From the sequence record OP870147.1: a stretch of 64,000 nucleotides of DNA; one strand, given 5' to 3'. Origin of the DNA: Escherichia phage vB_Eco_F31. A program made the translations under genes and the position numbers. Numbering within the stretch: position 1 is the first letter of the stretch; the number at the start of each line of letters is the position of its first letter. Below the pieces are notes generated by a model. That model was not told the DNA's origin. It did no database searches and saw only the letters and a program-made list of their open reading frames with translations. Of this stretch, positions 1 to 44,480 are shown one piece after another.

Positions 1-992
1 ACACGATACACGTCGATAATGTTATAAGAAATATATCGTTGGTGATTGCTTTCACGAAGCTTAGAAATAGGGCCGTCATATTTCAGTTTACCAACGTTCA
101 ATTCAAATTCTGAAATGTAATCCAGAGAATACGACGGTTGATTGGTAAAAGAGAATTTTTTGTAAAGGTCAATGTAATCAAGAACAGAGATACCGAACAA
201 TGTAATGATTTCACGAGAACCATACATGTTTTCGATAACTTTAACACGAGTTTTACGATGTGGTGATAAACGTTTCGCAGTAGATTCGCCAAAAATATTC
301 TTGATTCGGTTATACACATACGGAATATCAAATGACTCAACGTTCCATCCAGTCAAAATGACAGGAGTTTTCTGTTGCCAGAAGTTGAGATATTCCATCA
401 ATAATTCTTTTTCATTATCAAACGGCATATAAACGATTTTGTCGATAATTTCGGATGGAACTTCATCACCACCTTGTTCTTGAAGCTTAGCAGCGATTTC
501 AATAGACCATTCTTCCACATTACCATATGGAGAATTCAATAGATCAAATACGTAGAACCTGTCGTCAATTGAGTCATAATGGGTGATAGCATCAATCGGA
601 TGTTTTGCTTGTGACGGCTCAGGGAACCCGTCCGGAGATGTTACTTCGATGTCGAAGTTAGCCACACGAATTTTTGTATGGTCGTATTTGATTTCATAGT
701 TATAAGTGTCAGACAAATACGCCAATTTGAAATCGTCCATGCCAAGTGCTTCAAGCCCGATATCTTCCATGCGTTTAATCCATTGGGAGGCATCACGCAT
801 ATTAGCGAACAACTTACGAGTACACGGTTTACCGTAGATATCGAAATATTTCGTAGCCTGACTTTCTGGACAATGAGCAAACAGTGATGGTTTATATTCT
901 ACTTCACGAGTACGTTCACGGCCATTAGAATCGATGTAACGTTCAAAAATTGAATCACCAATCTGTTCAACCGTTAAGTAAAATTCTTTCAT
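1..992 (-). CDS. 43: DNA polymerase gp43, N-terminal ~330 codons (gene runs off the window start)
   Basis: Open minus frame from ATG 992..990 to window edge; translation MKEFYLTVEQIGDSIFERYIDSNGRERTREVEY matches T4-family (RB69-type) polymerase N-terminus from memory; SD AAGGAAA upstream. Confidence 0.93.
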   Translation of the reverse strand, partial: MKEFYLTVEQIGDSIFERYIDSNGRERTREVEYKPSLFAHCPESQATKYFDIYGKPCTRKLFANMRDASQWIKRMEDIGLEALGMDDFKLAYLSDTYNYEIKYDHTKIRVANFDIEVTSPDGFPEPSQAKHPIDAITHYDSIDDRFYVFDLLNSPYGNVEEWSIEIAAKLQEQGGDEVPSEIIDKIVYMPFDNEKELLMEYLNFWQQKTPVILTGWNVESFDIPYVYNRIKNIFGESTAKRLSPHRKTRVKVIENMYGSREIITLFGISVLDYIDLYKKFSFTNQPSYSLDYISEFELNVGKLKYDGPISKLRESNHQRYISYNIIDVYR

Positions 993-41579: not shown

Positions 41580-41606
41580 AAAAAGCCCCAACCATAAGGA
41601 AGGGGC
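41580..41606 (-). terminator. rho-independent terminator (GCCCC...GGGGC cassette)
   Basis: Same hairpin as 26071 copy followed by T5; 6 nt after stop at 41613. Confidence 0.7.
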
Positions 41607-41612
41607 ATTCTA

Positions 41613-42077
41613 TTATTTAATTTGTTTAGCAGACCAGATACGGTCTTTAATAAGTTTTTGGATATCTTCAACATACTCAAGGCTATGAGCGTGAGGATTA
41701 TCTTTGAAGCTATGTGCTCGTGCCAGTTTCTGTCCTTCTGTTTTGATTACTAAAAGCTCTTTAAGAATTGCTTCATACTTAGAAATAATTCCTTTGGCGA
41801 TATTTTTTTCTTGAGCTGCTTTAGGGTCCGCTTTTGGCGCAGGTGCTTTACCTGTAGCTTTCTGGAACAATTCACCTGATGCAGCTAGGCTTTTAAAAAC
41901 TCGGCTAACAGTATTAGCATTAGTAAAACCTTCGGCTTTAAAATCTCTAATAAAACGGAAACGTTCTTCATCAGAGGCGTCTTTGTAAGAATATTTACCT
42001 GCTTGAATTGCTGCAATCGCAGCGGCTTTTACATCTGAACTAGATTGTTCAGTCAAAAATTCAGCGTATGATTTCAT
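41613..42077 (-). CDS. internal protein (capsid-targeted; ipI-like position)
   Basis: CTS MKSYAEFLTE; terminator downstream. Confidence 0.7.
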   Translation of the reverse strand: MKSYAEFLTEQSSSDVKAAAIAAIQAGKYSYKDASDEERFRFIRDFKAEGFTNANTVSRVFKSLAASGELFQKATGKAPAPKADPKAAQEKNIAKGIISKYEAILKELLVIKTEGQKLARAHSFKDNPHAHSLEYVEDIQKLIKDRIWSAKQIK

Positions 42078-42122
42078 GTTGCTTTTCCTAAATTAATTAA
42101 CTTATCTATTTATTATTATGCC

Positions 42123-42149
42123 AAAAAGCCCCAACCTTTCGGAAGGGGC
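42123..42149 (-). terminator. rho-independent terminator (GCCCC...GGGGC cassette, GAAA loop)
   Basis: Minus strand GCCCCTTCC-GAAA-GGTTGGGGC followed by T5; closes the tRNA/RNA locus. Confidence 0.7.
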
Positions 42150-42201
42150 TATGCCTTGCGGCAACCTTGTCGGGGTTCCACCTGCTAAGGCAAGTGTTTG
42201 T

Positions 42202-42293
42202 ACGAAACGCCGGGATTTGAACCCGGTTATTAAGCAGTTGACGCTACTCAATATTTTTAAAAGGCCATATCTCGACCATATCCGAACGTTCCG
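42202..42293 (-). ncRNA. tRNA-like element (acceptor stem plus canonical T-arm, no canonical D or anticodon arm)
   Basis: Minus strand 5' CGGAACG pairs with CGTTTCG 3'; T-arm CCGGG-TTCAAAT-CCCGG at 42210..42226; no CCA encoded. Confidence 0.3.
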
Positions 42294-42637
42294 TCAAAAA
42301 CGCTACTCGGCTTACGGCAAAGATATTTCCTCGAATCGATAATTCGGTGCGCCGTTTCTGCTGTGATGTAAGGGGATATTAAAAAATCGTAAAGATTTAT
42401 TAAGACCAGTCCTTACTCAGGGAACATCAGTCCGACGACTTACCGGTAGCGACCCGGCTTCTTATTTTGGCATATCATCAATTTGCTCTCGACGCCGACG
42501 CCATAGATTAATAGCTTCATTAACACATTCGGCGTTTGGTATATGACGGCAATAATATAATGATTCGCGTTTCTGGAACCGATGTTGCAACGGGATTTCG
42601 TTTAAAAGGTCTTTACGGTCAAAGTATTCAAAACTAG

Positions 42638-42805
42638 TTAACCCGGAACGGTTTTAAGAAACTTCCAATGTCCGAATTCATTTTTAAAATAAACATAATC
42701 AGCATGTTGATATAATGAATTAATTAACCTATCGGAAATAACTGTTTCACGTTCGTTAAAATAAAACGTTAAATCATGAACTACCAGATACACATTGCCT
42801 TTCAT
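42638..42805 (-). CDS. hypothetical protein
   Basis: Start placed at ATG 42805 (MKGNVYLVVHDL...), SD GAGGAAAA, just downstream of tRNA-Arg. Confidence 0.45.
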   Translation of the reverse strand: MKGNVYLVVHDLTFYFNERETVISDRLINSLYQHADYVYFKNEFGHWKFLKTVPG

Positions 42806-42823: not shown

Positions 42824-42900
<77 letters not shown>

Positions 42901-42903
42901 GAT

Positions 42904-42978
42904 TGGTGACCCTGGCTGGTTTCGATCCAGCTACCTATCAGTTATGAGCTGACAGCTCTCCCATTGAGCTACAGGGCC
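42904..42978 (-). tRNA. tRNA with CAU anticodon (Met, or Ile2 if lysidine-modified)
   Basis: 75 nt with CCA; acceptor GGCCCTG/CAGGGTC, anticodon loop CTCATAA, T-arm GCTGG/CCAGC; 3 nt from tRNA-Arg. Confidence 0.85.
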
Positions 42979-44451: not shown

Positions 44452-44480
44452 ACTATAACATAGTCCTATCTGCATGTAAA
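44452..44480 (-). promoter_or_regulatory. early promoter / stem-loop cassette
   Basis: TTTACA-N17-TATAGT; perfect 9-bp repeat GATAGGACT/AGTCCTATC brackets the -10. Confidence 0.65.

Follow-up and report, generated by a model that had tools for sequence, protein, structure and literature searches.

What occupies the interval between the tRNA genes and the downstream terminator in the genome of Escherichia phage vB_Eco_F31? We analyzed a 64,000-nt stretch of this genome (record OP870147.1), hereafter the window, in which an initial annotation, made from the letters alone, had marked 42123..42637 as an ORF-free locus with a tRNA-like element and had put forward stable small RNAs like T4 rnaC and rnaD as candidates. 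The locus therefore raises the questions of whether these RNAs are encoded here, which part of the interval is free of protein genes, how the tRNA-like element is built and what such an RNA may do in the infected cell.

The locus is orthologous to the rnaD-rnaC region of T4

When 751 bases around the locus were compared with phage sequences, more than 800 T-even phage records matched, and the best matches (95-97% identity) were Mosigvirus (RB69-like) phages. The window comes from a T-even phage of the RB69-like (Mosigvirus) group. The minus strand is the coding direction of the genes around the locus, with two tRNA genes preceding it (Table 1). Besides this tRNA-Met and tRNA-Arg, neither ARAGORN nor Rfam made a call, and the RNA strand of 42123..42637 was empty even at E ≤ 10; chance Rfam matches at E ≤ 10 were seen on the opposite strand, for instance to isrK with 16 bits.

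Identity to T4 is high throughout the locus. Positions 42467..42118 align with T4 rnaD, rnaC and the terminator at 92.6% identity in a gap-poor alignment, with 136/139 identical positions in rnaC (97.8%, no gaps; nhmmer E = 3e-38), 106/120 in rnaD (88.3%) and 72/78 in trailer and terminator (92.3%). In the 5 kb that contain the locus, the flanking protein-coding DNA (57B to trna.2) shows only 72% identity to T4 and the tRNA genes of the two phages are barely alignable. With rnaC at 98% versus flanks at 72%, the cassette must therefore either be under unusually strong constraint or have been exchanged between phages. In KT184309 (phage ATK47, Mosigvirus) a feature designated 'rnaC; small stable RNA; species 1 RNA' corresponds exactly to window 42339..42201, and rnaC or rnaD features are annotated in ATK47, ATK48, RB5, Aplg8 and T4. 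The proposed stable RNAs thus proved to be direct orthologs of T4 rnaC and rnaD. Their suggested placement was likewise borne out: the tRNA cluster ends in rnaD (species 2 RNA), rnaC (species 1 RNA), a 3' trailer and an intrinsic terminator, in this order on the minus strand, and the T4 reference annotation lists rnaD and then rnaC directly after tRNA-Arg.

Genes for species 1 and species 2 RNA were known in phage T4, and sequenced as RNAs, in the 1970s. The find is real and already known, the RB69-like locus being on record in GenBank. RNA-seq has revealed RNAC and RNAD in T4; the same 2022 study detected RNAC on northern blots with a probe that begins at the same TCGATTCGAGG as rnaC does here (PMC9697503). 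We consider it very probable that 42465..42123 on the minus strand is an RB69-type version of the T4 rnaD-rnaC cassette, reached by readthrough from the tRNA operon, containing a tRNA-like rnaC and processed by RNase P.

Differences between the two phages are few in rnaC and more extensive in rnaD. T4 rnaC (T4s001, NC_000866 70908..71046) has the same length, neighbours and predicted fold as the window copy, which carries C for U in arm I, giving G-C instead of G.U, U.G instead of U-A in arm II and a T loop UUCAAAU instead of UUCGAAU. T4 rnaD (T4s002) shares with the window copy a conserved 5' stretch of 50 nt, a conserved 3' stretch of 25 nt and the place directly upstream of rnaC, whereas the long arms of the two differ in their apical part. 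T4 rnaD begins one base after the CCA of tRNA-Arg; in the window, a homolog of RB69ORF150c stands between tRNA-Arg and rnaD, so that instead of abutting a tRNA the rnaD 5' end overlaps a stop codon, its first bases coinciding with that of ORF150c (42464..42462).

The terminator that had been read at 42123..42149 was confirmed by folding, as a predicted hairpin at 42150..42127 followed by a U run that reaches 42123. A simple terminator scan missed it because of its loop rule of 3-8 nt, and a terminator feature is annotated at this place in SA79RD and G29.

Table 1 Features of the rnaD-rnaC locus and its surroundings, in window coordinates.
Feature	Coordinates	Strand	Basis or remarks
tRNA-Met(CAU)	42978..42904	-	ARAGORN and Rfam; upstream of the cassette, same transcription direction
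tRNA-Arg(UCU)	42900..42824	-	ARAGORN and Rfam; upstream of the cassette, same transcription direction
RB69ORF150c homolog (phrog_3355)	42805..42462	-	frameshifted; premature stop 42640..42638
rnaD (species 2 RNA) ortholog, 120 nt	42465..42346	-	106/120 vs T4
Spacer GAAUUA between rnaD and rnaC, 6 nt	42345..42340	-	alignment to T4 annotation
rnaC (species 1 RNA) ortholog, 139 nt	42339..42201	-	T4 identity, ATK47 feature, fold
S1, 5' strand of acceptor-like stem, CGAUUCG, nt 2-8	42338..42332	-	pairs with 42209..42203
Arm I, nt 9-78, long irregular hairpin replacing the D arm	42331..42262	-	helices 95.7-100% paired
A/U-rich single-stranded linker UUUAAAAA	42261..42254	-	between arms I and II
Arm II, nt 87-112, 9-10-bp stem, 6-nt loop CGUCAA	42253..42228	-	97.1% paired
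T arm CCGGG-UUCAAAU-CCCGG	42226..42210	-	99.4% paired
S3, 3' strand of acceptor-like stem, CGUUUCG	42209..42203	-	tail U-A at 42202, 42201
3' trailer, 50 nt, conserved	42200..42151	-	hairpins 42196..42179, 42177..42163, 42162..42153
Intrinsic terminator	42150..42123	-	AGCCCC..CC-GAAA-GG..GGGGCU, then UUUUU; fold prediction

A frameshifted gene extends into the interval

About 490 nt had initially been described as lacking a credible ORF. This description is correct for 42461..42123 (~340 nt), but not for 42637..42462, about a third of the interval, which belongs to a frameshifted RB69ORF150c that is intact in five relatives. In these phages (RB69, ATK47, SA79RD, mobillu and WFL6982) the gene has 345 nt, encodes 115 aa and follows directly on tRNA-Arg. 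The window copy starts at 42805 and has AAAA instead of AAAAA at 42655..42652; this A5-to-A4 deletion shifts the frame, which therefore stops at 42638. The 3' half of the gene lies out of frame at 42462..42637, its remnant being a 42-codon ORF at 42590..42462. Since this 3' half reaches 42462, the true non-coding part comprises 42461..42123, approximately 340 nt. The frameshift may be real or a homopolymer sequencing error. Pfam gave no match for ORF150c and its neighbours, and PHROG returned only families of unknown function.

rnaC folds into a four-armed, tRNA-shaped RNA

For a comparative analysis of the fold, rnaC homologs were collected from GenBank phages, IMG/VR and metagenomes, yielding 31 distinct sequences in a first set and 41 in a later one, of Tequatro-, Mosig-, Kagamiyama-, Karam-, Winkler-, Kanagawa- and Marfavirus type; the set of 31 comes from six or more genera. 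The 3' end of rnaC at 42201 was taken from the T4 and ATK47 annotations. Unguided RNAalifold prediction on the 31 homologs returned a four-arm fold in which the RNA's own ends form the acceptor, with compensatory changes in 25/39 predicted pairs. With a 7-position acceptor helix (41 pairs), the fold is paired to 93.9% compared with ~40% in slid controls, and 25 of its 41 pairs show double changes; none of 500 shuffles reached the observed values. The single-sequence minimum free energy structure of the window rnaC is the same fold (-50.2 kcal/mol, z = -4.2). With this z-score and more than 800 phage records carrying it, the conserved rnaC element is far beyond chance.

Double changes affect 15/20 pairs of arm I and 8/9 pairs of arm II. 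In the T arm, 17 sequences have G-C and 13 have U-A as the middle pair. The linker between arms I and II contains an A run whose length differs by 1 nt among phages, and a single unpaired A separates arm II from the T arm. The acceptor-like stem contains two U.U oppositions that never vary; at its third pair, 15 of the 31 sequences have A-U and 16 have G-C. It is noteworthy that this is the only covarying pair of the stem and that the 15/16 split tracks phylogeny. Beyond the U-A tail, the genome reads on CAA.

Several elements that had been recognized from the sequence by hand reappear in this fold. The T arm CCGGG-TTCAAAT-CCCGG lies at 42226..42210 with CGTTTCG (42209..42203) directly after it, and the hairpin with a 6-nt loop is arm II (loop CGUCAA, 42243..42238). 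The interior was correctly said to lack canonical D and anticodon arms, a 70-nt hairpin and the 6-nt-loop hairpin being found in their place.

The acceptor stem was assigned differently in the initial annotation, which had described a 92-nt tRNA-like element (42293..42202) closed by CGGAACG/CGTTTCG, with an RNase P cut at 42293 releasing it. Both strands exist where they had been placed, and they can form 7 pairs, one of them G.U, in the window as well as in every sequence of T4 or RB69 type; nearly the same stem, shifted by one base, is accepted by ARAGORN in phages G29 and 55. This stem shows zero compensatory changes, however, and its third pair becomes an unpaired A.C in 14/31 homologs, while the CGGAACG strand is not conserved in Kanagawa-, Marfa- and some Karamvirus-type homologs. 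CGGAACG (42293..42287) instead forms the 3' side of the apical helix of arm I, where it is 99.5% paired within the local hairpin and 5/6 pairs are compensatory. Its complementarity to CGUUUCG is probably owed to the resemblance between CGUUUCG and its local partner, CGUUUU. The annotated T4 rnaC moreover has 139 nt and starts 46 nt upstream of 42293. We therefore regard the 92-nt element as very unlikely, and the tRNA-like unit as the entire 139-nt RNA (42339..42201). A G3.U70 pair (alanine identity), which had been considered for the CGGAACG stem, was dropped once covariation showed that this stem is not real.

rnaC is thus a four-armed, tRNA-shaped RNA that combines an acceptor-T minihelix with two non-canonical arms, and it is no tRNA. 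The decoding half of a tRNA is missing, D and anticodon arms being replaced by the 70-nt hairpin and the hairpin with the 6-nt loop.

The apical loops of arms I and II are complementary

At their tips, arms I and II carry the loops UUGACG (42297..42292) and CGUCAA (42243..42238), respectively, which are exact reverse complements of each other. Complementarity between the two loops is kept in 41/41 distinct sequences, including the Marfavirus-like clade, in which the loops read UUGGCG/CGCCAA and thereby exhibit one double change. Given this complete conservation together with the double change, arms I and II probably engage in a loop-loop kissing interaction, with a covariation signal that amounts to one evolutionary event in a single clade.

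rnaC differs from tRNA, tmRNA and Y RNA, and its frames are not conserved

An ordinary tRNA mis-folded by hand had been named as an alternative, and the covariance-model check suggested for it was run: neither Rfam RF00005 nor ARAGORN found a tRNA in 42123..42637, in line with the view that this is not an ordinary tRNA. An explicit tRNA assignment is nevertheless present in vB_EcoM_G29 and 55, where the locus is annotated as tRNA-Lys(UUU), which would make it an ordinary or slightly degenerate tRNA with a long variable arm. ARAGORN indeed reports a 94-nt tRNA-Lys(ttt) on these two copies because their linker A run is 1 nt shorter, and the shortened linker yields a loop CUUUUAA as in E. coli tRNA-Lys. 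Against this stands the failure of ARAGORN and RF00005 to make a call on the window, T4, EcS1 or Karamvirus copies. When the cloverleaf was tested on the alignment, its anticodon stem was paired in 57% of cells, with two pairs that never form, its acceptor stem lacked covariation, and the 'anticodon' UUU was UUA or UUG, or shifted, in other genera. The 94-nt tRNA-Lys(ttt) was rejected as an artefact on the strength of this alignment test, and a lysine tRNA at this locus is extremely improbable.

Likeness to canonical tRNAs (RF00005) is confined to the overall plan of rnaC. A T arm with a UUCRAAU loop adjoins the 3' strand of a 7-position terminal stem, the layout has four arms, and the gene is placed in tRNA arrays with tRNA-like spacing. 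Unlike a canonical tRNA, rnaC has no D arm and no 7-nt anticodon loop, measures 139 nt, contains two U.U oppositions in its acceptor stem and ends in a U-ACA rather than an N-CCA tail.

By analogy only, rnaC also resembles tmRNA and other non-tRNA substrates of RNase P, in which the paired ends form an acceptor-T minihelix with extra structure inserted. In contrast to tmRNA, rnaC has neither G3.U70 (pair 3:70 is A-U or G-C) nor a tag reading frame, and no CCA is encoded in its UACA tail except in the Marfavirus-like clade. A tmRNA has a length of ~360 nt, far above the 139 nt of rnaC. ARAGORN and Rfam made no tmRNA call at the locus. The YrlA/Y RNA model (RF02553) gave only a weak match (16.6 bits versus a gathering score of 69), which fell on the two real tRNAs and not on rnaC, and the rnaC/rnaD cassette matched no Rfam family at gathering score or at E ≤ 10.

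Many GenBank records carry 'hypothetical protein' CDSs here, which would have the interval code for small proteins. Two mechanically called ORFs (49 and 74 aa) overlap rnaC, and in several records 1-4 hypothetical proteins are annotated at the locus. The stop-free frames are not conserved, however, a 79-codon frame of the window being reduced to 36-45 codons or absent in many close homologs, and 1-nt indels occur inside the rnaC/rnaD region. These CDSs are therefore not credible; substitutions, in addition, track base-pairing rather than codons, and we see next to no chance that the interval encodes small proteins.

rnaC and rnaD are separable modules

rnaD comprises a 5' hairpin that is conserved (CCGG-GUCGCUA-CCGG), a helix in which GUCGUCG pairs with CGGCG-AC to close the structure, and a long arm whose tip is hypervariable. 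The 5' and 3' parts of the RNA are invariant, with at least three versions of the long-arm tip among T-even phages, and the consensus fold comprises 22 pairs, of which 4 show double changes. The 5' end at 42465 is a provisional assignment transferred from T4 and is uncertain in the window because ORF150c, not tRNA-Arg, precedes it. Inspection by eye for pairing between rnaD and the trailer or between rnaD and rnaC gave only 5-nt matches, which are broken by an insertion in one homolog.

Neither rnaD nor the trailer occurs without the other, and the interval between them is a constant 145 nt in 22/23 sequences. This also applies to Dhakavirus IME08, which lacks rnaC: here rnaD is joined directly to the trailer and the 145-nt rnaC unit is precisely absent. 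rnaC without rnaD is conversely found in EcS1 and in Karam-, Winkler-, Kanagawa- and Marfavirus-type phages. In such loci with mapped tRNA genes (EcS1, Karamvirus, Winklervirus), rnaC is positioned between tRNA genes with tRNA-like spacers; A/U-rich spacers of 4-6 nt, like the one that separates rnaD and rnaC, follow the tRNA CCA end upstream of rnaC in EcS1 and Karamvirus. Since rnaD and trailer exist without rnaC in IME08, and rnaC without rnaD elsewhere, the two RNAs are independent modules. In the Marfavirus-like clade, rnaC has an encoded U-CCA-A at its 3' end.

No homolog was matched by blastn in 5,426 complete E. coli genomes of the host species. A distant search, in which pattern scans of IMG/VR, JGI metagenomes and GTDB genomes were followed by a covariance model, returned only T4-like contigs of enterobacterial phages. 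A looser IMG/VR pattern extracted 113 stretches, among which 11 further loci bear homologs; the rest fail the HMM, as expected for chance. One 31-bit match in a retrieved locus (L076) turned out to be an ordinary tRNA-Gln/Asn pair.

Transcription and processing by analogy to T4

The late promoter motif TATAAATA does not occur within 3 kb of the locus. The best promoter-like site is situated at 44480..44452 (TTTACA-17-TATAGT with TG), and no terminator was found between this site and 42150. The rnaD-rnaC cassette would thus be transcribed by read-through from upstream, as the 3' end of the tRNA operon. In T4, a single tRNA-cluster transcript of ~1.75 kb, with its end beyond the species I RNA gene, is the precursor of the eight tRNAs and the species I and II RNAs (PMC2330249).

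Transcript ends and RNase P processing are carried over here from T4. RNase P would recognise the acceptor-T minihelix of rnaC. Since the tRNA-like unit is the whole 139-nt RNA, its expected RNase P site would be 42340/42339; the minihelix formed by the rnaC ends, together with the T4 5' end and the 2022 northern probe at UCGAUUCGAGG, points to this same position. We infer that RNase P cuts at approximately 42340/42339 and not at 42293. Such a cut would make the 5' end of rnaC and free rnaD, from which ~6 nt (the spacer GAAUUA) would then have to be trimmed. The 3' end of rnaC, ..CGUUUCG-UA, might arise via cleavage of the trailer and subsequent exonucleolytic trimming. Precursors of the T4 species 1 and 2 RNAs reportedly accumulate in RNase P-deficient hosts, according to T4 literature of the 1970s-80s.

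A possible role of rnaC as a tRNA mimic

The function of rnaC and rnaD was listed as unknown in a 2010 review (PMC3014915), and likewise in the 2022 omics study (PMC9697503). The literature examined gave no function for either RNA. In 2025, a T4-like phage adapted to E. coli ECOR34 was described to have acquired the same rnaD SNP in all lines (PMC12685909). This convergent SNP on ECOR34 hints at a host-dependent role.

Both RNAs could be stable left-overs of the tRNA operon that have no role in trans and act in cis only, as processing punctuation, in 3' protection or in termination. T4 mutants deleted for the tRNA region can grow on laboratory hosts, which counts in favor of such a reading, as does the position of the cassette at the operon 3' end in T4 and RB69 types. 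It would also agree with the fact that no target or partner is known for rnaC or rnaD (2010 review, PMC3014915). A role in cis only is difficult to reconcile, however, with 98% conservation of rnaC next to 72% in the flanks and with a fold kept through many compensatory changes across genera. It likewise conflicts with rnaC as a module amid tRNA arrays without rnaD or a terminator, the persistence of rnaD and trailer without rnaC in IME08, and a convergent adaptive SNP in rnaD. We hence consider a purely cis-acting cassette unlikely.

As a tentative proposal, rnaC may imitate a tRNA without decoding and thereby keep a tRNA-binding protein of the host or the phage occupied late in infection; we give this some chance of being correct, well short of even. 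The acceptor-T minihelix would present rnaC to a protein that recognises tRNAs, with the kissing-loop core replacing the decoding half. Its target could be a host nuclease or sensor directed at tRNA, for instance one that serves in defence, or a tRNA-processing enzyme such as RNase P or the CCA-adding enzyme. Compatible with a mimic are the movement of rnaC between phage genera as an independent, tRNA-sized module and the convergent SNP that the linked RNA rnaD acquires during host adaptation; the U-CCA copy of the Marfavirus-like clade, which might be charged or CCA-repaired, would fit as well. A decoy function is a guess, because nothing in the data indicates a particular protein partner.

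The discovery value is small, as annotations of the genes already exist for T4 and some RB69-like genomes, and there is some practical value: in most of the more than 800 related GenBank records the cassette is unannotated or hidden under 'hypothetical protein' CDSs or the spurious 94-nt 'tRNA-Lys'. Functional tests of these abundant, strongly conserved RNAs can start from the acceptor stem that the two ends of rnaC form, the covariation in arms I and II, the matching hexaloops and the finding that rnaC and rnaD also occur apart. If the tRNA mimic holds true, rnaC would be a decoy or anti-defence RNA of these phages.

Architecture and 3′ end of rnaC

In all 41 distinct homologs, the hairpin loops of rnaC (species 1 RNA), UUGACG and CGUCAA in the window, are exact reverse complements of each other. 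The paired variant UUGGCG/CGCCAA occurs in one clade, the Marfavirus-like homologs. This invariable complementarity, together with the paired change in one clade, suggests that the two loops form a kissing-loop pseudoknot. The same Marfavirus-like clade combines the double loop change with an encoded CCA: at the rnaC 3′ end its members (L021, L022, L038, L040, L131, and L147) encode ...CGUUCCG-U-CCA-A, and every rnaC homolog outside it carries U-ACA-A. Judged by sequence, the U-CCA is a genuine discriminator plus CCA.

In phages G29 and 55, a 94-nt tRNA-Lys(ttt), both annotated and called by ARAGORN, covers the 3′ two thirds of rnaC. The call arises because the A run of the linker, the A/U-rich single strand between the two non-canonical hairpins, is one base shorter there. 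Covariation rules out this tRNA-Lys, which is thus a mis-annotation.

Coordinates of the features discussed
Feature	Record	Position	Strand
Best sigma-70-like site	window	44480..44452	-
ORF150c homolog	window	42805..42462	-
A run with 1-nt deletion	window	42652..42655	
Premature stop	window	42638	
rnaD long-arm tip	window	~42410..42370	
rnaC loop UUGACG	window	42297..42292	-
rnaC loop CGUCAA	window	42243..42238	-
154-aa ORF	window	42077..41613	
Second terminator copy	window	41606..41580	-
GTTTAC..TATAGA-type sites	window	~41545, ~41170	
tRNA-Lys(ttt) call	L017 (MK327940, G29)	673..766	
tRNA-Lys(ttt) call	L018 (OQ599310, 55)	673..766	

Surroundings of the cassette

The RB69ORF150c homolog (phrog_3355), 115 aa long in relatives and intact in five close ones, carries A4 instead of A5 on the minus strand of the window, and this 1-nt deletion causes its premature stop. 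The gene could be a real pseudogene or the product of a homopolymer sequencing error. Among sigma-70-like sites that precede the tRNA/rnaD/rnaC block, the best reads TTTACA-17-TATAGT with a TG upstream (10/12 matches), and similar GTTTAC..TATAGA-type sites follow each downstream terminator. The terminator motif GCCCCUUCC..GGUUGGGGCUUUUU recurs after the 154-aa ORF; this second copy shares 83% identity with the terminator region of T4 rnaC and accounts for the “2 places per record” in the BLAST tables.

Modularity of rnaD and rnaC

Among T-even phages, both ends of rnaD (species 2 RNA) are invariant, in contrast to the long-arm tip (alignment columns ~55–98), of which there are three or more unrelated forms. 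Compared with the window cassette (42465..42123), the locus of Dhakavirus IME08 (NC_014260; locus L006, 1203..1400) precisely lacks the 145-nt rnaC unit, rnaD running straight into trailer and terminator. Conversely, EcS1, Karam-, Winkler-, Kanagawa-, and Marfavirus-type phages carry rnaC without rnaD or trailer, and in EcS1, Karamvirus, and Winklervirus it is situated within tRNA arrays. From these comparisons, rnaC behaves as an independent tRNA-sized module.

The window tRNA-Arg(UCU) did not align with its T4 counterpart (window 42824..42978 compared); tRNA-Met alone aligned with T4, partially, to a CAU-anticodon tRNA. The adjoining rnaD-rnaC cassette is 88–98% identical to that of T4, and flanking ORFs are 72% identical. 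By these alignments, the cassette and the tRNAs of the window have different histories.
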